Positions 3,498-26,529 of a stretch of 64,000 nt of DNA are shown here, one piece after another. The translations under genes and the position numbers were made by a program. The notes below the pieces were generated by a model that had not been told where the DNA came from, ran no database searches, and saw only the letters and a list, made by a program, of their open reading frames with translations. Origin of the DNA: a bacterium (GTDB lineage Bacteria; Patescibacteriota; Dojkabacteria; GCA-016699595); NCBI GenBank assembly GCA_016699595.1, contig CP064982.1:572340-636339 (forward strand), given 5' to 3'. Position 1 is the first letter of the stretch. Each line of letters begins with the position of its first letter.

Positions 3498-4454
3498 TCA
3501 ATTTTTACTTGACTTCTCTTTTTTATCAGTTTTGGCAGCCTCTGGATTCTGTTCAAGCCATTGATCCTTCAACCATTTCAAACCTGCTTGTTGCATTGCA
3601 ACATTTTGATAGTACAATCTCGTTCTTTCATCTATACCTTCTATCTGATCAAAGTTAGGAATGTCTAGGTTTTCTTCCCTTACTATCTGTGAGAGTAAAA
3701 TCATTACCGGCAAATAATCTCTAACTTCCTTCTCCCATTGTGCCTCCAATTCTTCAAAGGTCAACTTTTGAGATTCTAAATACTGTTCTTTTGTCAAACC
3801 TAAATCATTTAGTTTCTCATCAAAATGTATTCTTTGGTGATTAACTTCAAGCGACACAGGGTAATCAAGGGCTTCATACTCAGAAGCTTGCAACACTTCC
3901 TGCAAAAGTTCAGAATTGAACCTTTCTTCTGATTCTCTCACCTTTGCTAAAGTAAGACGAGATTTGACTTCATCTGGACTTACATCAGTTAGTTTATTTT
4001 GTTGGATATATTGTTCTACCTCTGAGTCACTTACATCTTCAGCATTTTGTGAGGCACTTACTTGCACATTTTTCATGTCCGGTAACTTGATATACGGGGC
4101 ATAGCCATATGCAATTAATATTTTTAGTTGTTTTTTGTCTTGAATACTTTTCTGAATGTCATCATCAAATTTGATTTCAGGCTCAGTTATTGGAAGTATT
4201 TTTTCCTCGGTAAGCACATATCTATAAGCTTCATCTATGATTATTTGTAGTGCCTCCATAACTATTTCCCTACCGTACTGAGATTCAATAATTGACAAAG
4301 GAACCTTGCCTTCTCTAAAACCGTCTAACTTCAAGTGTTTTGCCTTCTTCTCCAAAGCGCTAACTTTTGCATTTTCAAACAAATCATATTGTAAAGTTAT
4401 ATCGAAAGTTATTTTCGAGCCACCGTTATTTGTTTTGGTATATTGTATATTCAT
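3498..4454 (-). CDS. tig: trigger factor (short form, apparently lacking the PPIase domain)
   Basis: N-terminal KLDGFREGKVPLSIIESQYGREIVMEALQIIIDEAYRYV matches the trigger-factor ribosome-binding domain signature (GFRxGKVP). At 318 aa, with no FKBP-like segment, it is shorter than the usual ~430 aa. Confidence 0.7.
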   Translation of the reverse strand: MNIQYTKTNNGGSKITFDITLQYDLFENAKVSALEKKAKHLKLDGFREGKVPLSIIESQYGREIVMEALQIIIDEAYRYVLTEEKILPITEPEIKFDDDIQKSIQDKKQLKILIAYGYAPYIKLPDMKNVQVSASQNAEDVSDSEVEQYIQQNKLTDVSPDEVKSRLTLAKVRESEERFNSELLQEVLQASEYEALDYPVSLEVNHQRIHFDEKLNDLGLTKEQYLESQKLTFEELEAQWEKEVRDYLPVMILLSQIVREENLDIPNFDQIEGIDERTRLYYQNVAMQQAGLKWLKDQWLEQNPEAAKTDKKEKSSKN

Positions 4455-5706: not shown

Positions 5707-5718
5707 CTAAGAACTATT

Positions 5719-5806
5719 GGAGGGTTACCCAAGTGGCTGAAGGGGAGGGTTTGCTAAACCCTTAGTAGGAGCAATCCTAGCGAGAGTTCGAATCTCTCAC
5801 CCTCCG
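5719..5806 (+). tRNA. tRNA-Ser (anticodon GCU) with a long variable arm
   Basis: Acceptor ggagggt/accctcc. Anticodon stem-loop agggt-ttGCTaa-accct. Long extra arm. T-loop gttcgaatc. Confidence 0.8.
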
Positions 5807-5816
5807 AATTAATCTT

Positions 5817-8174: not shown

Positions 8175-8390
8175 AATTCCGATTTTTCACGCAGTATCCA
8201 AATGACCTAAGTTTGGAAAGTGGAAGCGAGAAACAACTCGTTAAAATAAAGAGTATATTAAGGTGGTACCGTTCCAATTCGTGACTATAAGTATAATGCA
8301 TAAATTTGCTTGATATTTATAATCAAAATTTGAACCCTTAAGCAATTTCTAAATCAAATTAGATTTCGCTTGAGGGTTTTTTTGTTAATT
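8175..8390 (+). promoter_or_regulatory. candidate T-box riboswitch leader (ultrashort Stem I, CCU specifier) upstream of the UDG-like/UDG-like/proS operon
   Basis: AUUAAGGUGGUACCG at 8257-8271 is a close match to the T-box consensus AAUUAGGGUGGNACCGCG. The proposed antiterminator is AAGG / UGGUACC bulge / GUUC (8260-8274) pairing with GAAC-CCUU (8332-8339). A competing terminator lies at 8333-8383. The hairpin ccaaa-UGACCUAAG-tttgg (8198-8216) displays CCU followed by A in its loop, as in the ultrashort Stem I of actinobacterial ileS T-boxes. Confidence 0.4.
8333..8383 (+). terminator. intrinsic terminator-like hairpin plus U-tract (the terminator arm of the candidate T-box)
   Basis: aacccttaagc (8333-8343) pairs with gcttgagggtt (8368-8378) as an 11-bp stem containing one G·U and a 24-nt loop. 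It is followed by ttttttt (8377-8383), 18 nt before the ATG at 8401. Confidence 0.4.
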
Positions 8391-8400
8391 GAAATATTTA

Positions 8401-9180
8401 ATGAGTATTATTACATACACAAAGAAAGAATTAGGGTCATATACTTGTAGGCTCGACTTAGATCAAGTTTTTAATAATAGCACTGAAAGAGTTAGGTTTG
8501 AATCTAAATGGTTGGATTTTATGAATTCAGATATTTGGAACTCAGAAGTCTTTTGTAAAGATAAAAATATAATTCAATATTACCATAAATCCTGGATTCC
8601 AGAAAAACCTTCAAGGAAGCCCAAACTACTTTTACTCGCTGGAAATCCAGCACCACACTCTACTTATAAAAGCGTTTGTTTTGCCCAGGAAAATAATAAA
8701 GGGGAACATAGGTTTTGGAAGGTTTTGAGAGAATCAAATATACTCGAAATAAATTCTCGATTAGATGGTATAAAAACTCGTTTTTTTGATGAAGAATATA
8801 CCTCTGATTTTCAAGTCGGGATTGAAGTCTTATTCTCATTGCCTACCCCTGCAAGTCATAAACTTTGGTCGGGTGTTCAAGGGATCAAGAAACTGTTTGG
8901 ACAAAAAGCTTTTGAAAAGATATATATAGAAGAACAAGCAAGGCTTAGATTTGTTATCCAAAACTATTTGAATAATGGTGGAACAATCGTCACTTTTCAG
9001 AGAGATGTATTCGAATCAATCAGTAATATCAAGTATAATTATCAAAATGTACTTAAAGGAGAAACAGTTGTAAAGTTAGGATCTGTCACTATATATGCTG
9101 CACCACCAACGAGACTAATGTATTCTCAGTCAATGAAAGATGTACTACAGAAAGTTAATTCAATAGCTCAACATGGATAA
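8401..9180 (+). CDS. MUG/TDG-like (family 2-like) uracil-DNA glycosylase superfamily protein with an ~80-aa N-terminal extension
   Basis: KPKLLLLAGNPAPHSTYKSVCFAQENNKGEHRFWKVLRESNI parallels E. coli Mug [38 protein letters not shown] (G-x-NP motif, RFWKV). The ATG at 8401 is preferred over the track's TTG at 8389. Confidence 0.55.
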   Translation: MSIITYTKKELGSYTCRLDLDQVFNNSTERVRFESKWLDFMNSDIWNSEVFCKDKNIIQYYHKSWIPEKPSRKPKLLLLAGNPAPHSTYKSVCFAQENNKGEHRFWKVLRESNILEINSRLDGIKTRFFDEEYTSDFQVGIEVLFSLPTPASHKLWSGVQGIKKLFGQKAFEKIYIEEQARLRFVIQNYLNNGGTIVTFQRDVFESISNIKYNYQNVLKGETVVKLGSVTIYAAPPTRLMYSQSMKDVLQKVNSIAQHG

Positions 9181-9895
9181 AAAGGTTCAACTACAAAATT
9201 TGATTCAAGAAATGTCACAAGATTCTGCTTGTGAATCTATGTTTGAAATTAATAATGATAAAAACCTGATAAACCAATTCAAGTACTCCACCTTTATTCC
9301 AAATAAGTGGTTTGACTGGCCGAAGTACTCAGAATCAAAAATTATGATAGTTGGTCAAGATTGGGGACCGTACGCAATTTTGAAAAGAAAATTTATAGAC
9401 ACATTTGAAATAGAATCTAAAGGCAAAGATTTTGACTATGACAAATTCTTGTATCAAACATTCTCTTCAAGAACAGAAAAGTTTATACAAAAATCTATTG
9501 AATATTGGTTTGAGATAGTGCATCATACTCAGATGAATTTTCGAGATTGGGATAATTATTTTTTTACAATTGCAGTGATGTTTTGTAGATCTGGCAATTT
9601 ATTTAGAGGAAGCACTAATTTTGATGCAAAAAGATCTCTTGCAGTATCAAGGTACTATCTTAAAAAACAAATTGAAATAGTACAACCTCAAAAGATAATG
9701 ACCTTAGGAGGTCTATCTTTGAGACAAGTCTTTTCAATTTTAGGAATTGAAGATAAAAGAAAATTAAGTGAAATTGTATTGCATAATGATAAATTTAATT
9801 GTCAAGAAATCGAAATTTTCCCAAACTTTCACCCTGCTTCACATGTTGACAAGAGAATAATTAGAGACAAGTTTCAAAACATCATTCCTTACTAA
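9173..9895 (+). CDS. divergent uracil-DNA glycosylase superfamily protein
   Basis: A hydrophobic strand followed by GQDWGPY (KIMIVGQDWGPY) resembles UDG motif A (GQDPY). The C-terminal FPNFHPASH resembles motif B (HPSPLS). It overlaps the upstream gene by 8 nt, suggesting translational coupling. Confidence 0.45.
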   Translation: MDKKVQLQNLIQEMSQDSACESMFEINNDKNLINQFKYSTFIPNKWFDWPKYSESKIMIVGQDWGPYAILKRKFIDTFEIESKGKDFDYDKFLYQTFSSRTEKFIQKSIEYWFEIVHHTQMNFRDWDNYFFTIAVMFCRSGNLFRGSTNFDAKRSLAVSRYYLKKQIEIVQPQKIMTLGGLSLRQVFSILGIEDKRKLSEIVLHNDKFNCQEIEIFPNFHPASHVDKRIIRDKFQNIIPY

Positions 9896-9924: not shown

Positions 9925-11148
9925 ATGACATACACAAAAAACTTCATAAAAACAAAAAAAGAAATAAGTTCAGAAATCGAATCAAAAAATGCACAGCTCT
10001 TGATCAAAGGTGGATTCATCAGACCTCAAATGGCTGGAGTATATATTTATCTCCCACTTGGACTTAGAGTTTTGGAAAAAATTACAAATGTTGTTCGCAA
10101 ACATATGGACGAAATAGCTAGTGAAATGCGAATGACAGCACTACAACCAAGAGATATTTGGGAGAAAACAAATCGACTTGATACTGTAGATGTACTTATG
10201 AAAACAATTGGAGCAAATGAAGTTTCAAAACAAAAGTCTACAAACGAATATATACTTGGATGCACACACGAAGATGTATTGACAAATATGCTTACCGAGT
10301 TTGTCCAAGGTGAATCTGAACTTCCAATATATGTTTACCAAATCCAAAATAAATTTCGAAATGAAGCAAGAGCAAAATCTGGACTTATGCGCGGAAGAGA
10401 ATTTCTGATGAAAGATCTATACTCATTTCATACGACTTACGAGGATTTGATGAGATACTATGAGATCGTCAAACAAAAATACATAGATATATTTGAAGAG
10501 CTTGGAATTGGAAACGATACATTTGTAACATTAGCTTCGGGAGGAGATTTTACAGATAACTTTTCTCATGAATTTCAAATGATTCTTGAAAGTGGAGAAG
10601 ATGAGATACTTATTGATAGAACGAATAAAATTGCCTATAATCTTGAAATTCTCGACGAGAACAAGGCAAAAAAAGTTGATCTGGAAAATGCAAACAAACT
10701 TGGAGTTGATTTTTCAAAGCTAGAAAAGGTCAAGGCCTCTGAAGTGGGAAACATATTTCCAAATGAAACTAAGTACTCAAAACTACTTAATCTATCATAT
10801 ACAAATTCAGATGGCGTGAAAAAATACGTTCACATGGGAAGTTATGGCATCGGAGTCTCAAGACTTATGGGTGTGATTGCAGAGAAATTCCATGATCCAA
10901 AAGGACTTACTTGGCCAGAGAATGTAGCCCCTTTCAAGTATCATATATGTACACTCGCAAAATCCGAATCTGAACTTTGTTTCCAGAATGCAAGAAAGTT
11001 TTATGTTGAGCATGAAACAGAGTCTCTTTGGGATGATAGATTTGATACTGCAGCTGGAGAAAAATTTGCAGATGCTGATCTAATTGGATGTCCAGTGCGA
11101 ATTGTCTTCTCTGAAAGAAATCCTGACGGAGAATTTACAAAAAGATAA
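9925..11148 (+). CDS. proS: prolyl-tRNA synthetase, minimal form without the INS editing domain
   Basis: LLIKGGFIRPQMAGVYIYLPLGLRVLEKI start; class II motifs FRNEARAKSGLMRGREFLMKD and YVHMGSYGIGVSRLMGVIAE; C-terminal KFADADLIGCPVRIVF. Only 407 aa. Confidence 0.85.
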   Translation: MTYTKNFIKTKKEISSEIESKNAQLLIKGGFIRPQMAGVYIYLPLGLRVLEKITNVVRKHMDEIASEMRMTALQPRDIWEKTNRLDTVDVLMKTIGANEVSKQKSTNEYILGCTHEDVLTNMLTEFVQGESELPIYVYQIQNKFRNEARAKSGLMRGREFLMKDLYSFHTTYEDLMRYYEIVKQKYIDIFEELGIGNDTFVTLASGGDFTDNFSHEFQMILESGEDEILIDRTNKIAYNLEILDENKAKKVDLENANKLGVDFSKLEKVKASEVGNIFPNETKYSKLLNLSYTNSDGVKKYVHMGSYGIGVSRLMGVIAEKFHDPKGLTWPENVAPFKYHICTLAKSESELCFQNARKFYVEHETESLWDDRFDTAAGEKFADADLIGCPVRIVFSERNPDGEFTKR

Positions 11149-11177: not shown

Positions 11178-11618
11178 TTACTGAGTAGCTGTTTGTTCTT
11201 GTGGCAAATAAAATACATTTATGATTTTATTTTCAGATTCCCTGAAAATATATGCCTGTGTCTGGAAAGATATTACGGCGTCACCGTTTTTTATATCTTT
11301 GAGCACATCCTTCAAGTTTGTATTCTCTTCCCTAAATTTATCTACATCCTCAATGAAAAATACTGTGGGTTGTGAAGAATCGGTTACATTTATTACTTTC
11401 TTCAATGAAGCAACAACTCGATCGAATTTTCTAATTTCATATAGTTCTCCTTGCAAAGCGTTACCCCATGCAGTAGCATCATCCCACTTTTTGTACAGAA
11501 GTACATTTATTGATATTGAGCCGAGAAGCATTACTAATAATAAAAGTAGTGAGAATTTTCGAAAGTTTTTGCCTTGTACTTTTTCTTTTATTTTCATAAC
11601 TAAATTATAGTATATCAA
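11178..11618 (-). CDS. hypothetical membrane-anchored protein downstream of the giant surface-protein gene
   Basis: N-terminal hydrophobic segment FSLLLLLVMLLGSISINVLLY. The likely start is the internal MKIKEK near 11594. It is co-oriented with the upstream 1644-aa gene. Confidence 0.45.
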   Translation of the reverse strand: MIYYNLVMKIKEKVQGKNFRKFSLLLLLVMLLGSISINVLLYKKWDDATAWGNALQGELYEIRKFDRVVASLKKVINVTDSSQPTVFFIEDVDKFREENTNLKDVLKDIKNGDAVISFQTQAYIFRESENKIINVFYLPQEQTATQ

Positions 11619-11639
11619 GGCAAAATATGCAAAAATATT

Positions 11640-14600
11640 TTATTTCACATCTGCTATTGTTTGGAAAGATTTCTCAAGTTGAACCAATCTTTCTTCAAGA
11701 TCATGGATTTTTTGATCTTGTTTCTCAATTTTCTCTTCTGTATTGAGAACTTTGGATACAAGCACTTTGAAACTTGATTGCCCGTTAGCTAAAGTATCAA
11801 TTTGAACTTGTTGTTCTTGGACTGCATTTATCAAAGCATATATAATCGCATTTGAATCATACCTGTAGTAACCATCTTCTCCAAGACTAATCGTCCATTG
11901 GCCTAGTGCTGTTTGATTGATGTCTTGAGCTATAAGTCCAACATAACTTTTGTCATTATCTGGTGCATATATACTTTTGCCATTATATTTAAATGTCTTT
12001 GGATCAATTTTCATAATAGCATCTAGACCTATATCAAAATCTTTGATATCCTTTTTCAACCTTTCGTCAGACAAAACAGTCCAAGCACCTCCTCCAATTT
12101 TTTCTGCTGTTCCTGCACTTCCTACAAATCTTGCTACTTGAGTTCCATCTACAAAGAAGTTTAGCTCAGCATCAGCTAATGATGTGATTCCAGAGTCTGT
12201 ATCGCCTATACCATTGGCACCAAATACAATTCCAGATGTTTGTGAAGAACCTGAAACTATAGAACCTCCAGCTAATTGCAATGCTCCTTCTATCTTTGCA
12301 GATCCTGATACATGCAGCTTTTGTGTAGGTGAGGTAGTGCCTATACCAACATTGCCCATAATGTAAGAACTATTTGTGCCATTCACATGTAGTATGCCCT
12401 TTATATAGGAATCTCCAGCAGTACCATCTACTTCAAATTTGAGTACACCATCGTTTCCATAAAAAGCCCAACCTTGTGTTGCAGGAGAGACCCATACATC
12501 CGTATATCGACTAATGCCATCGAAATGTGTCATTATTGGCATAGAAGTTACATAATGATTTGCATCAACAATATATAATTTGGAATTTAGCGATAGCCTA
12601 ACATCTCCCATGACATCCAATTTGTAACTAGGTGTTGTCCCAATTCCGACTCTACTATTGACATCATCATAGTAAAGACTAGAGTTAGACTTCCATACAC
12701 TTGTATTTGCGTCATAATATAGTGTTTGTCCTTCAGTTGCTGTAGGTAGTGTTGGTATCGTTGTCCATGCTGTTCCAGTACCTGTTGTTTTAAGGTATTG
12801 TCCATTTGTACCTGCTACATTACTTGAATCATACAACGCTCCTTCTACCCTTGCAGATCCTGATACATGCAGCTTTTGTGTAGGTGAAGGAGTCCCTATA
12901 CCGACAGAACCGGTGCTTATATTTGTATTGACACCATTTATACCTGTCCCAAAAATCAAGTTACCTATACTAAGCTGATTTGATCCATCCAATATTGGGG
13001 CATCTATATTATATCCAATTAATATATTCCTAGAACCAGTAGTTTCTAACCTACCTGTAAAGTATCCAAGAAATACATTGTCGGCACCGCTTGTCAAAGT
13101 TTTTCCATTCATATAACCTATTAATGTATTGTTTCCACCTGTAGTCAAAGATAACCCTGATTGATATCCGACTAAAGTAGTATTACTGAAAGTTGATAAA
13201 CTATCTGTACCCCTGCCTGACTGAAGTCCAATTGCCACATTTACTTGACCAGTAGTAAATCTCAAAGCTTCACCACCTATTGCCGTATTATTTCCACCTG
13301 TAGTTTTAAGTAATGTATAATGACCTATAGCCACATTATTGTTTGTAGCACTGGAGTTATTGTACATTGCACCATTGCCGATTGCTATAGTATCAGTTAT
13401 AGTGGTAGACGATCCGAACAATACATTTGCACCGATTGCCACATTTCCAGTACCAGTTTTAACTGAGCTCAAGGCATTATAGCCTATTGCAGTGTTGATA
13501 TAACCAGTAGTGATCGATGTACCAGTATTATTTCCCATCAAAACGTTGAACTTGCCAAAACTACCTCCTGTCAGCGTCGTGCTATCCCCTGCATTATTCC
13601 CTGCAAAGAGATTCGATGCGTCATTAGATGTAATCTCAAGAAGTGCAATGCCTGCGCTATCTTGAAATTGCATCAAAGCCTTGTCTACGGTTTGAGTGGC
13701 ACTTGCTTTTATAATTACTTGCTCAATATTTTCATTTCCTGCTACGAGTAACTTAGCCCCTGGTGTCGGTGTCCCAATTCCGACTCTACTATTTACATCA
13801 TCATAGTAAAGACCAGAGTTAGACTTCCATACACTTGTATTTGCATCAAAATATAGTGTTTGTCCTTCATTTGCTGTAGGTAACAAAGATACTCCTGGAG
13901 CTAATACAGTCCAAGCTGTACCATTTCCAGTACTACTTAAGAACTGTCCATTTGTACCTGCTACATTACTTGAATCATACAATGCTCCTTCGATCCTTAC
14001 AGATCCTGATACATGCAGCTTCTGTGTAGGTGACGGAGTCCCTATACCAACAAAACCGGTGCCCGAGAAGGTTAAGCTATTGGTATTCAGATTTATATCT
14101 GTATTCTTCGTAAGATTCCCTCCTAGTTGGAAGTTAGATAGCGTAGATTGCGTTAAACCATTGTCAGAAGTGTACTTTGTATCTATATCAGCAACACACT
14201 CAAAACTAGATCCATTCCAAGAAAGTTTTTGATCTGATAAACAAACAGGTGAATCTACAGAAATAGTTCCAGTAGATGATATAGGTCCACCAGTAAGCCC
14301 AACTCCTGTAGAGAGACTTGTCAATGTGCCATTAGTTGTATTACTACATATCCAAGAGCTCGTCGTTAAGTCATATCTAAGAATCTGAGTATCACTGCAA
14401 GAATTTAGTGAGTATCTTACAGTATTTACTGCTATTACTTCAGCTTTTAGTGGACCTACTGCCGAGAAAGTAACCATTGAGCCTGGATTTATATTTTGTG
14501 AATTTGAGCCGTCAGTTACGACAAAATAACTATCCTCACAATCAAAACTTACTCCGCTCCATGTAAGCCTTTGGTTTGTTGCGCATGTATGTGCATCAAT

Positions 14601-16574
14601 TTGAAATGTAGTTCCAATCAAACTTACTCCATTTCCTGCATTATATGTAGTATCATTATCTGGTAATGTAATAGTATAAGTTGAACTATCTGACATAGTC
14701 AAATTCAAAGTTCTTAAAGTTCCACCAGATGTAACTGCACTTGTTGAAATCGTTGCAGAAGACAAAAACTTATCTGCCGGTAGCATTATAGAATTTACTA
14801 TGGAGTGACCATTTGTTCCAGTTATGGCTAATGTTCTAGTTTGAGAGTCATAGCTCAAATTTTGTGAATCTGCATCAATTATACTTTTCGATAAACTAGG
14901 AGTGCCATTCTGTCCCGTTAAATTGATTGTATGAGTGATTGCCCCAGTACCAGAATCTTGAATAGTCAAATCATCACTATATTTATCAAAATCATTAAAT
15001 GAAGTGCATGCCCATGAACTTGAATTGTATATTAAAAATTCTCCATTTGAACATGGGTTCAATGTAACTATAGGATTTTGCCCATTACTTACACCTATCA
15101 CACCTGAACCTGTAACTGACAATGTACCTGCATTCGAAATCTCATTTGATGAATCTATCCCAATACCATTACCTGCACTATAAATATACTTTGATTCAGG
15201 AATGCATACCCAATTTGAACCGTTGTACACGAGAAGTTCACTTGTGCTACAAGCTTTGAGACTAAAAACATTCGAGTTTAATGTTATACCATCACCAGAA
15301 GCATAGGTTGTATCGGCATCAAGATCTAGGGAACAAATCCAATCACTTCCATCATACTTCAATATCTCTCCACTTGAGCAAGGCTTAATAGAAAATACAT
15401 TTGAAGATAAAATTAAACCTGAACCAGAAGTGTAAATATCATTATCATCAGGAATATTTAGAGCAATATCAGGCAATCCTCCTGAACGAGTTAATGTCAA
15501 AATCCTATAACCTGATTGCAATTCAGACAAAGTAGCTCCTGTCAAATATAACTCTGCAGGCAATGCCGGCAGTATTATCGAACCACCATTTGTCAATGAG
15601 ACAATGTTTCCATCAATTGTTAATTCCTGTGAATCTGTAGGAATAATAACTGAATTTCCACTCGATAATGTCAAAGTGCCATTATTATAGTTTAGGCTTT
15701 GCAAAACTTGATTTGGCAAAACTATAGAATTGCCATTTGATATAGTTATTGTATTGCCAATAATTTTCAAATCTTGACTATCTTTGCTAAATTTCAAAAT
15801 CATATTTGCAAGGTCGAGTTGATTCCCTCTTTCAATGCTTAAATTTGAACCTTCTAAGCTGATCTTTTGATTGTCACTAGCAAAAGCGGCTTCTACCTCT
15901 GCGCCTTGCAGATAACTTCTAATAACGCTTTCTAGAAACTCCGTTCTTTGTTGAATCAAGTCGCTTTTCTCGTCATTACTCAAGAATTTACCTACAGACA
16001 AATCTTGAATCAAATTGAGATTTGATTTTGTACCGATAAATTCACTGTACACTATATCTTTGCATCCAAGCGATGTTGGGTAAAATGAAATATCATTTTG
16101 AGTACCAAAAAATCCTTTCAAATTTGCAATAAATCCTTGTTGAATAAGCCTACGACTGCAAGCAACATTGTCAAATGTGCCTTTTGCATCATCGTGTCCT
16201 TGACATGATGAAACTTCGTTTCCATCTTCAGACATGGTTGAATAGCAGAGCTGCAAGTATGACTTTTTTGGCAAAGCAAAGATACCCGGATTAATGTTTA
16301 TATCAAATTTACCATTCCTGATTTCAACATTATCAAAATCCCAACTTTCTATTAGTCTTGCATCGGAAGAATTTTTATCAAATACTAAGATTCTGAAATT
16401 GGTTGCTTTTGTTTTATCGTTTCCAAAGTCACCATTAATCGTTACTTTGAGTGGTTTTGCAAAAGTTAATAAAAAAAAGATTGCTACTAGTAGAGCAAGA
16501 AGCAATAATTTAACAGAAAGGCGACTTCTCGCATTTGCAATATTCAATTTTTTTGAATTAATATAGTTTGCCAA
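11640..16574 (-). CDS. giant (1644 aa) tail-fibre-like surface protein with a C-terminal S74-type intramolecular-chaperone domain
   Basis: N-terminal signal/TM segment LSVKLLLLALLVAIFFLLTFA. Three VGIGTPSPTQKLHVSGS-(R/K)-EGAL modules. Seven or more CxxxxLxYxGSxWxC repeats. Gly/Asn/Thr-rich beta-helix-like tracts. C-terminal SDERLKKDIKDFDIGLDAIMKIDPKTFKYNG...VGLIAQDINQ...GYYRYDSNAIIYALINAV matches the peptidase S74 / endosialidase chaperone domain, and is followed by a coiled-coil tail. Confidence 0.8.
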   Translation of the reverse strand: MANYINSKKLNIANARSRLSVKLLLLALLVAIFFLLTFAKPLKVTINGDFGNDKTKATNFRILVFDKNSSDARLIESWDFDNVEIRNGKFDININPGIFALPKKSYLQLCYSTMSEDGNEVSSCQGHDDAKGTFDNVACSRRLIQQGFIANLKGFFGTQNDISFYPTSLGCKDIVYSEFIGTKSNLNLIQDLSVGKFLSNDEKSDLIQQRTEFLESVIRSYLQGAEVEAAFASDNQKISLEGSNLSIERGNQLDLANMILKFSKDSQDLKIIGNTITISNGNSIVLPNQVLQSLNYNNGTLTLSSGNSVIIPTDSQELTIDGNIVSLTNGGSIILPALPAELYLTGATLSELQSGYRILTLTRSGGLPDIALNIPDDNDIYTSGSGLILSSNVFSIKPCSSGEILKYDGSDWICSLDLDADTTYASGDGITLNSNVFSLKACSTSELLVYNGSNWVCIPESKYIYSAGNGIGIDSSNEISNAGTLSVTGSGVIGVSNGQNPIVTLNPCSNGEFLIYNSSSWACTSFNDFDKYSDDLTIQDSGTGAITHTINLTGQNGTPSLSKSIIDADSQNLSYDSQTRTLAITGTNGHSIVNSIMLPADKFLSSATISTSAVTSGGTLRTLNLTMSDSSTYTITLPDNDTTYNAGNGVSLIGTTFQIDAHTCATNQRLTWSGVSFDCEDSYFVVTDGSNSQNINPGSMVTFSAVGPLKAEVIAVNTVRYSLNSCSDTQILRYDLTTSSWICSNTTNGTLTSLSTGVGLTGGPISSTGTISVDSPVCLSDQKLSWNGSSFECVADIDTKYTSDNGLTQSTLSNFQLGGNLTKNTDINLNTNSLTFSGTGFVGIGTPSPTQKLHVSGSVRIEGALYDSSNVAGTNGQFLSSTGNGTAWTVLAPGVSLLPTANEGQTLYFDANTSVWKSNSGLYYDDVNSRVGIGTPTPGAKLLVAGNENIEQVIIKASATQTVDKALMQFQDSAGIALLEITSNDASNLFAGNNAGDSTTLTGGSFGKFNVLMGNNTGTSITTGYINTAIGYNALSSVKTGTGNVAIGANVLFGSSTTITDTIAIGNGAMYNNSSATNNNVAIGHYTLLKTTGGNNTAIGGEALRFTTGQVNVAIGLQSGRGTDSLSTFSNTTLVGYQSGLSLTTGGNNTLIGYMNGKTLTSGADNVFLGYFTGRLETTGSRNILIGYNIDAPILDGSNQLSIGNLIFGTGINGVNTNISTGSVGIGTPSPTQKLHVSGSARVEGALYDSSNVAGTNGQYLKTTGTGTAWTTIPTLPTATEGQTLYYDANTSVWKSNSSLYYDDVNSRVGIGTTPSYKLDVMGDVRLSLNSKLYIVDANHYVTSMPIMTHFDGISRYTDVWVSPATQGWAFYGNDGVLKFEVDGTAGDSYIKGILHVNGTNSSYIMGNVGIGTTSPTQKLHVSGSAKIEGALQLAGGSIVSGSSQTSGIVFGANGIGDTDSGITSLADAELNFFVDGTQVARFVGSAGTAEKIGGGAWTVLSDERLKKDIKDFDIGLDAIMKIDPKTFKYNGKSIYAPDNDKSYVGLIAQDINQTALGQWTISLGEDGYYRYDSNAIIYALINAVQEQQVQIDTLANGQSSFKVLVSKVLNTEEKIEKQDQKIHDLEERLVQLEKSFQTIADVK

Positions 16575-16668: not shown

Positions 16669-17352
16669 ATGCAAGTTCAAATTGATTCATCCTGGAGAGA
16701 AATACTTCAAAATGAATTTGAAAAAACATATTTCAAAAAATTAGTTGAAAAGGTAAAGAACGAATATAGTCATTTTGAAATATTTCCAGAACCAAGAAGG
16801 ATATTTCGCGCATTCAACCTAGTTCCATTTGACAGAGTAAAAGTTGTAATTTTAGGGCAAGATCCTTATCATACTCCAGGAGTTGCAGATGGTTTGGCAT
16901 TTTCTAGTAAGTTCGGAAACAAAGTTCCGCCAAGCTTGACTAATATCTATAAAGAAATCCGTAATGAATTTAACTTTGAAAATTACAAGAATAAAAACAA
17001 TCCTGATCTAACCAGGTGGGCTACTCAAGGAGTCTTTTTGTTGAATAACAGTTTAACTGTAAAGTCTGGCATTGCAAACTCGCACTCTCAAATCGGTTGG
17101 AATATTTTTACTGATGCAGTTATAAGAGCCCTTGCAAGTAATAGAAACAACCTAGTTTTCATGCTTTGGGGAAACTTTGCCAAAAGTAAAAAAGAAATTA
17201 TACTTACAAACTCTGGAAGTAATCCTCATTTAATTTTGGAATCTGCTCATCCTTCCCCTTTTTCAGCAAACAATGGATTTTTTGGTAATAATCATTTCAA
17301 AAAGTGTAATGAATTTTTGAAACTTCATCATGAAACTGAAATTCAATGGTAA
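16669..17352 (+). CDS. ung: uracil-DNA glycosylase, family 1
   Basis: VKVVILGQDPYHTPGVADGLAFS (water-activating loop), LLNNSLTV, LVFMLWGNFA and HPSPFSANNGFFG are all canonical UNG motifs. Confidence 0.9.
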   Translation: MQVQIDSSWREILQNEFEKTYFKKLVEKVKNEYSHFEIFPEPRRIFRAFNLVPFDRVKVVILGQDPYHTPGVADGLAFSSKFGNKVPPSLTNIYKEIRNEFNFENYKNKNNPDLTRWATQGVFLLNNSLTVKSGIANSHSQIGWNIFTDAVIRALASNRNNLVFMLWGNFAKSKKEIILTNSGSNPHLILESAHPSPFSANNGFFGNNHFKKCNEFLKLHHETEIQW

Positions 17353-23510: not shown

Positions 23511-25592
23511 ATGTCAACATTTTCAGATCTCAAAAACAAATTTATATACTTCTGGCAGTCAAAAGGCGCAAAAGAGATACCAGGATTATCGCTTGTTCCA
23601 CAAGGTGATTCTACTTTACTTTTTGTCAATTCTGGTATGTTTCCACTTGTGCCATACTTACTTGGAGAAAAACATCCACTCGGAACTAGACTTTGCAATG
23701 TCCAGAGATGCCTTAGAACTGAAGATCTTGAAGATATCGGAGATACAAGACATTTAACCTTGTTTCATATGATCGGAAATTGGAGTTTAGGAGATTTTTT
23801 CAAAAAAGAACAAATACCGTTTGTACTTGAGCTTTATGTTGAGCATTTTGGACTTGATCCAAAACGAATATATGTTTCAGTTTTTGAAGGTGACGAGTCA
23901 GCTCGAAGAGACGAAGAATCTATCGAGCTTTGGAAGCAAGCTTTTGCAAAATATGGAGTAGTTGCAGAGTATAATCCAGATCCATATTCAATCTCAGAAA
24001 CTCTAGAGGGAAATGCAAACTTTAGAATATTTAGTTATCCCAAAAAGAAAAATTGGTGGACAAGAGGTGAAGTTGCTGGAGAACCTGGAGGTCCAGATAG
24101 TGAAACATTTTATGATATGGGAACTCAAGCTGAAGAATATGAAGAGAAATTACATATAAATGGAGATAATGGGAGATTTGTAGAAATTGGAAACAATGTT
24201 TTCATGCAGTATAAATATGAAGTCCCCATTGCTAAGGGGGATACGGCAACGCCGAGTGGGTTTTGGTTAGAAATGCATAAGAAAAATGTAGACTTCGGAG
24301 GTGGTTTGGATAGAATTGTGATGTGCGCAGAAAACAAGTTTGATATATTTGAAACTACACTTTATTGTGAAGTTATCGATTATCTAGTTACTAAAACTGG
24401 TATTCCGTATAAAACTACTTCCTTTGTGAAGGTGGCACAAGGTGACGGAAGAGGTTTTAAGCGAAGTTATAGAATAATTGCAGATCATATAAAAGCTTCA
24501 GTTTTCCTACTTGCTGACGGAGTTTTCCCAAGTAACAAAGATCAAGGCTATATCCTGCGAAGATTAATTCGTAGAATGATAGTACAAGGTTATAATCTTG
24601 GAATTAAAGATAAGTTTGTGAAAGAAATTGCCGAGATAATGATAGGTTTGAACTCAGATCAAGATCAAATTATTTCAAATAAAACCAATATAATTTTAGA
24701 ACTTGAAAAAGAAGAAGATAAATTTAGGGTGACATTAGAAAGTGGAATAAAAGAATTTGAAAAATTGATCCTTCCTTTTAGGAAGGGGAACCACAAAGTG
24801 GTGGAAGGTTTAAATCCAAATATTGCTCTCTTACAAACGAATACTAACGAAATAGGATTCTCTGGAAAAGACTTATTCTATCTTTATGAGTCTTTCGGGT
24901 TTCCAATTGAGCAAAGTTTAGAATTATTGAAACAAAACAATGTTGATTTTGATGAAAGTAAGTTGAAAAGCGAGTTTGATAATGCAAAACTAGAACATTC
25001 CAATTTATCACGCACTAATTCTGAGCAAAAATTCAAAGGTGGACTTGCAGACAATTCAGAGATTGTAACTGCACTCCACACTACTCACCATCTTTTACTC
25101 GCTGCACTTCAAAAAGTTTTATGCTCAAAAGATATACACCAAAAAGGTAGTAATATAACTTCTGAAAGACTTCGAATTGATTTCAATTTCGATAGAAAAT
25201 TAACTACAGAAGAATTAGCAAAAATAGAATCCCAAGTTCAAGAGTGGATTGATCAAGGATTACAAGTTGAAAGACTAGAAATGAAAAAAGAAGAAGCAGA
25301 GAAACTTGGTGCAGAGCATGAGTTTGGAGCTAAGTATCCAGATATGGTTTCAGTTTATAAAATATTTTATCCTTCCTGGAAGGAAGGTGTCACTCAAAGC
25401 CCGACGGAAGGTTTAACCTCCAGTCTTTCAGACAGCCTCCTACAAGGAGGCATCATAAGTCTTGAGTTTTGTGGCGGTCCTCATGTCGCAAATTCAAAAG
25501 ATATAGCTAAATTTGGAAGTTTCAAAGTTTTGAAAGAAGAAGCAAGTTCATCTGGAATTAGAAGAATAAAGGCTGGATTGGTTAGGCAGTAA
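23511..25592 (+). CDS. alaS: alanyl-tRNA synthetase lacking the C-Ala domain
   Basis: LVPQGDSTLLFVNSGM, RCLRTEDLEDIGDTRHLTLFHMIGNWSLGDFFK, editing-domain HTTHHLLLAALQKV, and C-terminal CGGPHVANSKDIAKFGSFKV. 693 aa. Confidence 0.9.
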   Translation: MSTFSDLKNKFIYFWQSKGAKEIPGLSLVPQGDSTLLFVNSGMFPLVPYLLGEKHPLGTRLCNVQRCLRTEDLEDIGDTRHLTLFHMIGNWSLGDFFKKEQIPFVLELYVEHFGLDPKRIYVSVFEGDESARRDEESIELWKQAFAKYGVVAEYNPDPYSISETLEGNANFRIFSYPKKKNWWTRGEVAGEPGGPDSETFYDMGTQAEEYEEKLHINGDNGRFVEIGNNVFMQYKYEVPIAKGDTATPSGFWLEMHKKNVDFGGGLDRIVMCAENKFDIFETTLYCEVIDYLVTKTGIPYKTTSFVKVAQGDGRGFKRSYRIIADHIKASVFLLADGVFPSNKDQGYILRRLIRRMIVQGYNLGIKDKFVKEIAEIMIGLNSDQDQIISNKTNIILELEKEEDKFRVTLESGIKEFEKLILPFRKGNHKVVEGLNPNIALLQTNTNEIGFSGKDLFYLYESFGFPIEQSLELLKQNNVDFDESKLKSEFDNAKLEHSNLSRTNSEQKFKGGLADNSEIVTALHTTHHLLLAALQKVLCSKDIHQKGSNITSERLRIDFNFDRKLTTEELAKIESQVQEWIDQGLQVERLEMKKEEAEKLGAEHEFGAKYPDMVSVYKIFYPSWKEGVTQSPTEGLTSSLSDSLLQGGIISLEFCGGPHVANSKDIAKFGSFKVLKEEASSSGIRRIKAGLVRQ
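24768..24812. repeat. copy 3 of a ~65-bp hairpin repeat family, in-frame inside alaS
   Basis: atccttcctttt-aggaagg-ggaaccac-aaa-gtggtggaaggttt: ccttcc/ggaagg arms plus an inner hairpin. It encodes LPFRKGNHKVVEGLN within the intact alaS ORF. Confidence 0.6.
25369..25434. repeat. copy 1 of the same repeat family, in-frame inside alaS
   Basis: atccttcctggaaggaaggtgtcactcaaagcccgacggaaggtttaacctccagtctttcagac. It shares atccttcct..aggaaggtgtc..caaag..gacggaaggtt..cagtcttt with the 33776 copy, and encodes YPSWKEGVTQSPTEGLTSSLSD. Confidence 0.65.
25510..25592 (+). repeat. direct repeat A (the native alaS 3' end)
   Basis: aatttggaagtttcaaagttttgaaagaagaagcaagttcatctggaattagaagaataaaggctggattggttaggcagtaa reappears at 27422-27503 with 4-6 mismatches. 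Confidence 0.8.
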
Positions 25593-25614: not shown

Positions 25615-26529
25615 ATGTCAATTCCAACACATTTACAAATAATGTTGCCTTTATTGAAGTTATATTCAGACAACAATATCCACCATAGAACAGATTTTAT
25701 AGATAAAATTTCTGATCATTTTAACTTAACCGATGATGAGAGAAAACAAAAAGTAAATTCAGGTTGGACAAGAATATCTGATAGAGTTGATTGGGCAATA
25801 ACATTCTTAAAATCAGCTAAATTAGTTGAATCACCTAAAAGGGGATATACAAAAATTACACGACGTGGAAAAGAATTATTAAAAACTGGAGTTGAATCTT
25901 TAGACTTAAATAAAATAAAGGAATTATATCCAGATGTTATGGAAACTGCCTTTTGGAATCCAGAACTAAGAACTTCAACAAATGCTACTGCTACAAATAT
26001 AAATAATGAAAACTATACACCTGACGAACATTTAGCTCAAATAGTTGAACAAAAGAAACTTACAATTTATGCAGAAATTGAAGATCAGATCAAAAGAATT
26101 TCTCCCAAAGCATTTGAAAAATTAGTTGTAAAATTATTAATTGCTATGGGTTATGGAACTGAGGAATTTAGTCAAGTTACTCAATATAGTAACGATGGTG
26201 GTATTGATGGAATAATCCAAGCAGATAAACTTGGTTTTAGAAAAATTTATGTACAAGCCAAAAGATATTTAAGCAACAATGTTGGAAGAACTGAACTTCA
26301 AAATTTTGTAGGTGCAATGGGTAAAGTTCACGAAGGAATCTTTATAACTACATCAAAGTTTAATAGTAATGCACTAGAGTATATCCGTGACATTTCGCAA
26401 AAAGTTATTTTGATTGATATAAACAAACTTGTTGAACTAATGCATGAATACAACCAAGGTGTTTCTGTTCGAGATAATATTGAAATAAAAGGAATAGATG
26501 GGGATTACTTTGATGAACTTGAATCATAG
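25615..26529 (+). CDS. mrr: Mrr-family type IV (modification-dependent) restriction endonuclease
   Basis: N-terminal winged-helix Mrr_N-like region. Catalytic core AFEKLVVKLLIAMGYG...SNDGGIDGIIQADKLGFRKIYVQAKRYLSNNVGRTELQNFVGAM...GIFITTSKF matches Mrr_cat (D-x-QAK). Confidence 0.8.
   Translation: MSIPTHLQIMLPLLKLYSDNNIHHRTDFIDKISDHFNLTDDERKQKVNSGWTRISDRVDWAITFLKSAKLVESPKRGYTKITRRGKELLKTGVESLDLNKIKELYPDVMETAFWNPELRTSTNATATNINNENYTPDEHLAQIVEQKKLTIYAEIEDQIKRISPKAFEKLVVKLLIAMGYGTEEFSQVTQYSNDGGIDGIIQADKLGFRKIYVQAKRYLSNNVGRTELQNFVGAMGKVHEGIFITTSKFNSNALEYIRDISQKVILIDINKLVELMHEYNQGVSVRDNIEIKGIDGDYFDELES

Follow-up and report, generated by a model that had tools for sequence, protein, structure and literature searches.

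A tail-fibre-like protein encoded in a reduced bacterial genome is a probable MAT-type surface fibre, and its gene is followed by one for a small membrane protein

The genome of the Gram-negative predator Bdellovibrio bacteriovorus HD100 encodes 21 chromosomal mosaic adhesive trimer (MAT) fibres (Caulton et al. 2024, Nat Microbiol, PMC10769870). Thirteen of them end in an S74 domain with an SDxxxK motif, and self-cleavage, at S782, has been shown for Bd3182; eight end in TNF-like, C-type lectin or novel beta-sandwich tips. All share a conserved domain that is rich in beta structure and ~130 residues long, follows the signal peptide, has no homologue in the PDB and was proposed to keep the fibre attached to the predator, and their capping loops follow the consensus V-G-G/N-pi-x-x-P-x-x-x-L. 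MATs are displayed on the predator surface and one binds Proteus glycans; according to the authors, the surface element that holds the fibre is still to be identified (PMC10769870). Supplementary Table S3 of that study lists Oligoflexia, Micavibrio, Uabimicrobium, Myxococcales, FCB-group bacteria and one Omnitrophota metagenome-assembled genome (MAG), and no member of the candidate phyla radiation (CPR). In the literature searched, MAT fibres were linked only to predators (PMC10769870). Here, we describe a gene within a 64,000-nucleotide stretch (the window) of contig CP064982.1 (assembly GCA_016699595.1, positions 572,340 to 636,339 of the forward strand) that encodes a tail-fibre-like protein of 1644 residues. 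We assign a probability of about 0.75 to the reading that this protein is a MAT-type surface fibre with a functional S74 chaperone.

The protein is identical to QQR93382.1, which is annotated at NCBI as a 'tail fiber domain-containing protein'. An earlier note on this DNA, written from the sequence without database searches, had placed the open reading frame (ORF) at 11640–16574, a position that is exactly borne out on the minus strand, and had interpreted the product as a cellular adhesin built from phage-fibre parts. Profile matches, an export or anchor signal, genomic context, codon usage and the lack of viral relatives all support that idea; it is correct, but the class has already been described, as the MAT fibres (PMC10769870). 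As in the S74 subgroup of MATs, exemplified by Bd3182, the gene is chromosomal and lies outside any prophage, and the protein consists of an export signal followed by a beta-rich N-domain, a long repetitive shaft, capping loops and a C-terminal S74 domain with an SDxxxK motif. Its relatives swap tips, including TNF/C1q-like ones, and it has direct sequence matches to PDB chains of the Bd2133 and Bd2439 type and to one Bdellovibrio fibre. An N-domain after the signal, a capping loop and mosaic tips, the sequence-level marks of a MAT, are therefore all found in this protein and its family. The features of the locus are as follows.

11640–16574, minus strand: fibre gene, 1644 aa, TTG start (from the ORF list; QQR93382.1)
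16458–16574, minus strand: charged N-terminal tail and hydrophobic segment, aa 1–39 (from the sequence; relatives of the same subtype also lack an AxA site)
16020–16457, minus strand: N-domain, aa 40–185, with an all-beta core (aa 38–125) and then a four-Cys extension (C110, C124, C139, C171), from profile, alignment and AlphaFold2 (AF2) model
15525–15881, minus strand: short repeats of the L(S/T)xxGNSVxLP type, aa 232–350, common to many relatives
14175–15449, minus strand: stalk with six two-Cys modules, aa 376–800, motif C-x2-[GSN]-x2-L-x-[YW]-x-[GS]-S-x-[WF]-x-C
13740–14060, minus strand: capping-loop module, copy 1, with two VGIGT loops, aa 839–945 (sequence comparison)
12960–13580, minus strand: Gly/Asn/Thr-rich, beta-helix-like block with repeats of the NxAIGxxAL type, aa 999–1205 (PHROG 4636, 23837)
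12600–12914, minus strand: capping-loop module, copy 2, aa 1221–1325, 76% identical to copy 1 in amino acids
12255–12359, minus strand: fifth capping loop, aa 1406–1440, matching Bd2133, Bd2439 and related MAT crystal-structure sequences
11784–12071, minus strand: Peptidase_S74 chaperone domain, aa 1502–1597 (Pfam, PHROG and PDB sequence matches)
11643–11783, minus strand: heptad-rich, probably coiled-coil tail, aa 1598–1644 (heptad count)
11178–11597, minus strand: partner gene, 139 aa, QQR93381.1 (hypothetical protein; blastp, AF2, metagenome loci)

The Pfam search that the earlier note had called for returned PF13884 over residues 1502–1554 at 44.4 bits (E 2e-11), above the curated gathering cut-off of 22, and so upheld the S74 C terminus that had been proposed. 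The same note would have abandoned its idea had S74 and tail-fibre profiles both failed to match; both types match. The stretch SDERLK places Ser1502 and Lys1507 at the i/i+5 spacing of the SDxxxK dyad and aligns with SDRRIKKDIKAF (SDRRIK) of a solved phage long tail fibre chain, 6f45. By analogy, self-cleavage is predicted to occur before Ser1502 with Lys1507 as the base. Over the last ~70 residues, 13–14 of 20 a/d positions are hydrophobic in two registers, a crude test that agrees with the coiled-coil tail suggested previously, and this tail would belong to the released fragment. The S74 proteins of phages (K1F endoNF, 3GW6; T5 pb1, 4UW8; 6f45) belong to the same Pfam family and share both the Ser-Lys motif and the position of the domain after a beta-helical, trimer-forming region. 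Unlike them, the protein described here lies outside any virion, has an N-terminal export or anchor signal and carries the extra heptad-rich tail of ~47 residues.

Five loops of the form VGIGT..P...L occur, at residues 842, 931, 1224, 1309 and 1409. Three of them (842, 1224 and 1409) have the long form VGIGT(P/T)SPTQKLHVSGS, matching the count of three modules made earlier, and the two at 931 and 1309 are shorter. The C-terminal 264 residues match PDB entries 8ond (Bd2133, E 1e-7), 8ojn/8onb/8onc and 8ol4/8onf by way of the motif GNVGIGTTSPTQKLHVSG; the matches to 8ond, 8ojn and 8ol4 are driven by the capping-loop motif, and the segment VGIGTPSPTQKL fits the MAT capping-loop consensus given above. 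Closer to the N terminus, canonical copies of the two-Cys repeat are found at residues 399–414, 442–457, 508–523, 664–679, 726–743 and 778–793, so that the repeats are present as had been claimed, although 'at least 7' was slightly high.

The Gly/Asn-rich stretch that had been described as beta-helix-like (residues ~999–1205) matches both tail-spike and virion-structural profiles, with E values of 4e-28 for PHROG 4636 (tail spike) and 2.5e-12 for the virion-structural family. That the tail-spike family gives the strongest PHROG match would suit a protein that is mainly an enzyme, a tailspike-like glycan depolymerase, displayed or released, that cuts host capsule, extracellular polysaccharide or cell wall for access or nutrients. 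S74 domains were first described on endosialidases, which also counts in favour of such an enzyme. The closest match of the Bd3182 monomer is likewise the P22 tailspike (PMC10769870). However, domain searches of the fibre protein detected no family of glycosidases, lyases or esterases, the beta-helix block, at ~200 residues, is short and consists of simple NxAIG repeats that are more like a fibre shaft, and the published MATs are described as binders. A mainly enzymatic role is therefore improbable.

The two capping-loop modules that bracket the beta-helix block are direct DNA repeats (12636–12916 and 13770–14062) with 86–96% identity. The repeat spacings within the gene are 1146 and 1134 nt, both multiples of three. 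The duplicated module indicates a recent intragenic duplication or conversion, and such repeats could provide a route to in-frame deletion, expansion and length variation. On a Logan contig of the same strain (L083, SRR11673978) the fibre gene appears split into three ORFs. Phase variation was considered as the cause and rejected, because the 2654 nt of the contig that align with the window contain no mismatch and 11 gap positions, which points to indel read errors and not to variation.

The N terminus begins with a charged stretch of 22 residues (five Lys or Arg) followed by an uncharged, hydrophobic run of 17 residues (23–39), which is the signal or transmembrane anchor recognized in the earlier reading; judged by its sequence, the segment of residues 1–39 may be a signal anchor or else a signal peptide of the Gram-positive type. 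The core of the N-domain that follows (residues 38–125) is modelled confidently by AF2 as all-beta, with a predicted local distance difference test (pLDDT) score of 80–92. A Foldseek search of the N-domain model against the PDB gave no significant match (best E 0.011, to a generic beta-sandwich), and in this the core resembles the MAT N-domain, for which its authors likewise found no PDB homologue (PMC10769870). A profile of the N-domain was seeded on the target, P0035 and P0085 and iterated without any Bdellovibrio sequence. It detects the Bdellovibrio protein P0152 (WP_243537111.1, annotated as a 'tail fiber domain-containing protein' and present in Bdellovibrio reynosensis and B. bacteriovorus) at residues 22–177, immediately behind the signal peptide (E 3e-5 in the second iteration and 1e-13 in the third). 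Of ~158 family proteins, 84 are detected by the profile, against which the target scores 5e-15. P0152 and the target also have two-Cys modules and an S74 domain in common.

Alignment of the N-domains separates two subtypes. The Gram-negative-type subtype, which includes the Bdellovibrio protein, has short signal peptides ending in AxA (ALAQA/P, AFVFA/AP) and an N-domain without Cys. The anchor subtype (the target, P0035, P0026, P0033, P0090, P0023 and the L122 fibre) has a charged N-terminal tail of 12–25 residues, a hydrophobic segment of 17–24 residues without AxA (LAIPKP, LLAPKS, FLTKPQ) and four conserved Cys in the N-domain. Whereas MATs have a short, cleavable signal peptide, the target has a long charged tail and a hydrophobic segment of the anchor type; its N-domain also differs from theirs in the four-Cys extension, and its shaft in being rich in two-Cys modules. 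The N-domain Cys pair 110–124 forms a motif unlike that of the stalk repeats. The features of the anchor subtype are consistent with a type-II membrane anchor whose extracytoplasmic base is stabilized by disulfides, as expected of a cell without an outer membrane, although the anchoring mode of the target is one that we infer from sequence.

An exhaustive HMMER search with residues 1–840 against 1.84 billion representatives yielded 871 relatives, of which 238 reach E ≤ 1e-10. The majority have 800–4700 residues and match through the two-Cys and LSxGNS repeats. A word-indexed homology search returned four weak matches for the whole protein and one self fragment for residues 1–526, which reflects a limitation of the index. 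Comparison of the C-terminal tips among 137 relatives gave 60 clusters, with 29 tips of the S74 type (including the target), five of the C1q type (among them P0003, PF00386, with a TNF-like fold) and 37 in another cluster whose representative has a P_proprotein domain; tips of unknown type occur as well. So many tip clusters over a conserved proximal end constitute the mosaic pattern that gave the MATs their name. In P0003 (L082:5015-8191, GCA_964478695.1), an anchor region and two-Cys repeats like those of the target are followed by a C1q end instead of S74, a counterpart to the TNF-like tips of those Bdellovibrio MATs that lack S74.

A fibre on the cell surface does not necessarily recognize a host bacterium. 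It could serve in self-aggregation or biofilm cohesion, in attachment to abiotic or eukaryotic surfaces, as an S-layer-like coat or as a phage decoy. Some relatives lie in genomes unlike those of obligate symbionts (one on a 706-kb contig that also encodes exosortase, LysR and a Ser/Thr kinase, another on a contig containing WhiB), and non-predators too are listed in the MAT paper (PMC10769870). The characterized members of the class, on the other hand, mediate recognition of other bacteria (PMC10769870), mosaic and rapidly swapped tips are typical of receptor-binding proteins, and a 0.76-Mb genome suggests host dependence. We consider a surface role of these other kinds possible but somewhat unlikely. 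Given a MAT-type fibre, the odds that its ligand lies on a bacterial host are roughly even.

In Pfam scans covering 49 ORFs of the window, all functions recognized were housekeeping ones: SmpB, trigger factor, a GT4 glycosyltransferase, RecX, two proteins of the uracil-DNA glycosylase (UDG) family, ProRS, RnpA, SecA, ABC transporters, AlaRS, Mrr, MetRS, TatD, a Mur ligase, HisRS, a cysteine desulfurase-like enzyme, FtsW/RodA, enolase, DnaJ, CofD, Tmk, a MacB-type exporter and DnaE. The proS, ung, rnpA and secA flanks named in the earlier note were confirmed in this way, as was its non-phage setting, since no integrase, capsid, tail, baseplate or lysis gene was found among these ORFs (~11 kb on one side of the fibre gene and ~47 kb on the other). 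No paralogue of the fibre gene was found elsewhere in the window, which compares with 21 MATs in HD100. The codon usage of the gene is native: at third codon positions its GC is 0.233, where the window averages 0.249 (z = −0.36), and its codon-usage distance of 0.085 from the other genes is comparable with 0.087 for DnaE and 0.100 for SecA. Recent horizontal transfer, which the raised total GC of the gene might have suggested, was rejected on these grounds; the excess lies entirely at codon position 2 (z = +3.3) and so reflects amino-acid composition.

These data bear directly on whether the protein is a remnant or domesticated fibre of a phage or tailocin, one that still sits on a virion-like particle encoded elsewhere in the genome, as its public annotation and the combined matches to PHROG tail-fibre and tail-spike profiles and to S74 might imply. 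A virion tail fibre is expected to lie in a phage structural module and to lack an export signal. Here, the N-terminal export or anchor sequence is incompatible with cytoplasmic virion assembly, phage genes are absent over the distances just given, no relative was found among 2.9 million viral contigs, codon usage is native and relatives occupy varied housekeeping contexts (uvrB/uvrA; type IV pilus–recA–recX; WhiB–PNPase). This alternative is largely refuted and is very improbable.

Two other types of surface protein were compared. Trimeric autotransporter adhesins (YadA/Hia) also form long trimeric fibres and have head repeats resembling NxAIGxxA, and the target would share the trimeric state by homology; one weak homologue is annotated by JGI as such an adhesin. 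However, no Pfam match to YadA_anchor or Hep_Hag (E ≤ 1) was found in the target, which ends in S74 and heptads and has no C-terminal beta-barrel anchor. Its polarity is the opposite, with the anchor at the N terminus and the tip at the C terminus. The giant surface proteins of CPR predators and epibionts, such as Vampirococcus lugosii (PMC8080830), are likewise large, membrane-associated, encoded by a reduced-genome bacterium and proposed to act in host recognition, but they contain WD40, PKD, DUF11, integrin or fibronectin domains, and no S74 or phage-fibre architecture is reported there (PMC8080830).

On the basis of homology to Bd3182 and to phage S74 proteins (PMC10769870), we propose the following for a MAT-type surface fibre at this locus. 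The protein would be exported by Sec, and the hydrophobic segment at its N terminus, the beta-rich N-domain or the two together would keep it on the cell. Three chains would form a long fibre, with folding from the C to the N terminus templated by the S74 chaperone. The chaperone would then cut between L1501 and S1502, using the Ser1502/Lys1507 dyad, and release a fragment of 143 residues comprising S74 and the heptad tail. Cleavage would expose a distal tip of capping loop and beta-helix able to bind a ligand, probably a glycan, on another cell. The small membrane protein encoded downstream may dock the fibre or help to assemble it at the membrane. Attachment to a host by such a fibre is plausible by analogy.

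This small, conserved protein (the partner) is encoded on the strand of the fibre gene, with its start 42 nt downstream; no neighbour of this kind is mentioned in the MAT paper (PMC10769870). The partner is homologous to the small ORFs directly downstream of the fibres P0035 and P0026 (pairwise blastp E 1e-7 to 1e-11). A metagenome scan with a partner alignment gave 33 loci, fetched with patterns taken from fibre-adjacent partners, of which 17 were informative in that a same-strand ORF of at least 450 residues ends just upstream of the partner. The directly upstream ORF has a fibre-module match (E ≤ 1e-3) at 14 of these 17, and an SDxxxK motif occurs in two of the other three ORFs, at a distance of 214 or 456 residues from the end. 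At L119:1209-2353, two partner-family genes occur in tandem, and the ORF upstream of the matched partner is a paralogue. Three independently sampled long contigs, which carry the partner homologues P0250, P0253 and P0193, all have a TM-anchored fibre-family protein within 4 kb, where TM denotes a transmembrane segment. P0250 directly follows an S74 fibre of 1634 residues with the full architecture of the target, with WhiB, PNPase and RNase J adjoining; a TM-anchored protein of 1896 residues lies two genes downstream of P0193. The linkage of partner and fibre is frequent, not obligate.

Pfam and NCBIfam contain no family that matches the partner protein. Its own family numbers at least 673 proteins, none of them named, and some have a C-terminal LytR_C cell-envelope domain. 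The AF2 model (pLDDT 74.6) consists of a TM helix that runs into a long helix (residues 18–75) and a small alpha/beta domain (residues 85–137, pLDDT 84–90). Searches of this model against PDB and viral structures gave no match (best E 0.33 and 0.27), and the possibility that the partner is a recognizable phage tail-fibre assembly chaperone was rejected for this reason. Promoter and terminator scans returned background levels. A match to TTTGCA-18-TATAAT (10/12) at 11604–11633 on the minus strand ends 6 nt before the partner ATG, which would give a near-leaderless transcript and may be due to chance. That the partner is a membrane dock or assembly factor for the fibre is a tentative and rather unlikely proposal. 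We hold a broader one to be equally doubtful, namely that fibre and partner form a widespread, undescribed two-gene host-recognition cassette of monoderm or CPR-type bacteria, in which the partner, through its TM helix, stalk helix, alpha/beta domain and sometimes LytR_C, docks the N-domain at the membrane or cell wall.

The host chromosome contig is 761,814 bp long. This 0.76-Mb size, several short housekeeping proteins and a SecA that matches Patescibacteria at only 46% indicate a reduced, CPR-like genome. The short proteins include trigger factor (318 aa, 3498–4454), ProRS (407 aa, 9925–11148), in which only the catalytic core is detected, and AlaRS (693 aa, 23511–25592). For SecA, 46% was the best identity among 185,579 species genomes, with MAGs of Levyibacteriota, Gracilibacteria, Kerfeldbacteria and Doudnabacteria as the top matches. 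Compared with the Gram-negative predators that carry MATs, this host is thus reduced in genome, CPR-like and presumably monoderm, and the premise that it is an episymbiont is plausible. In other phyla, 80 SecA loci were inspected and no fibre gene lay near any of them; the position of the fibre is thus not deeply conserved.

Several points weigh against the interpretation as a MAT-type host-recognition fibre with a membrane partner. We infer trimerization, self-cleavage, surface display, the ligand and the role in host attachment from homology. The N-domain of the target is divergent, with 9–19% identity to the family, its link to Bdellovibrio needed two to three rounds of profile iteration in a small database, and its Cys-rich second half gave no reliable model (pLDDT below 50). 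The bridging protein P0152 is not verified to be among the 21 published HD100 MATs. The sequence TFA/KP in the target could be a signal-peptidase site, which makes the TM-anchor reading uncertain. The linkage of partner and fibre at the metagenome loci may be inflated by the patterns with which these were fetched, and the partner homologue P0253 lies 3.5 kb from its fibre-family protein (TM-anchored, 2080 residues) and is not directly adjacent to a fibre gene. Finally, the CPR affiliation draws on the SecA identity of 46% and on genome size.

Other features of the window were recorded in passing. Two genes of the UDG superfamily flank the fibre cassette, a divergent one at 9173–9895 and canonical ung at 16669–17352, and an unannotated ORF of 263 residues (8389–9180) overlaps the divergent gene by 8 nt. 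A restriction endonuclease of the Mrr type (Mrr_N and Mrr_cat, 25615–26529) lies among the housekeeping genes. The window contains six tRNAs, five called by both ARAGORN and Rfam; the sixth, tRNA-Ser(gct) at 5718–5807, is called by ARAGORN and not by Rfam at its gathering threshold.

The fibre class is known and the protein already carries a generic annotation. A CPR-like host, a subtype with a membrane anchor and a partner encoded alongside seem not to have been described before, and the literature searched contained no paper that joins S74, intramolecular chaperones or MAT-type fibres with CPR or Patescibacteria. Host recognition by these bacteria beyond type IV pili is little understood, and the literature on their attachment names type IV pili and unspecified adhesins. 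If the fibre is a host-recognition device, a mechanism known from Bdellovibrio would extend to a very different envelope type and lifestyle, and the 871 fibre relatives and at least 673 partner homologues would provide a sequence-searchable candidate for host range in uncultured episymbionts. The partner would then also be a candidate for how such fibres stay on the cell, an open point for Bdellovibrio too. Should fibre and partner indeed form a two-gene cassette, the partner would be the surface element sought by the MAT authors, and the cassette would determine which hosts an ultrasmall episymbiont can attach to.

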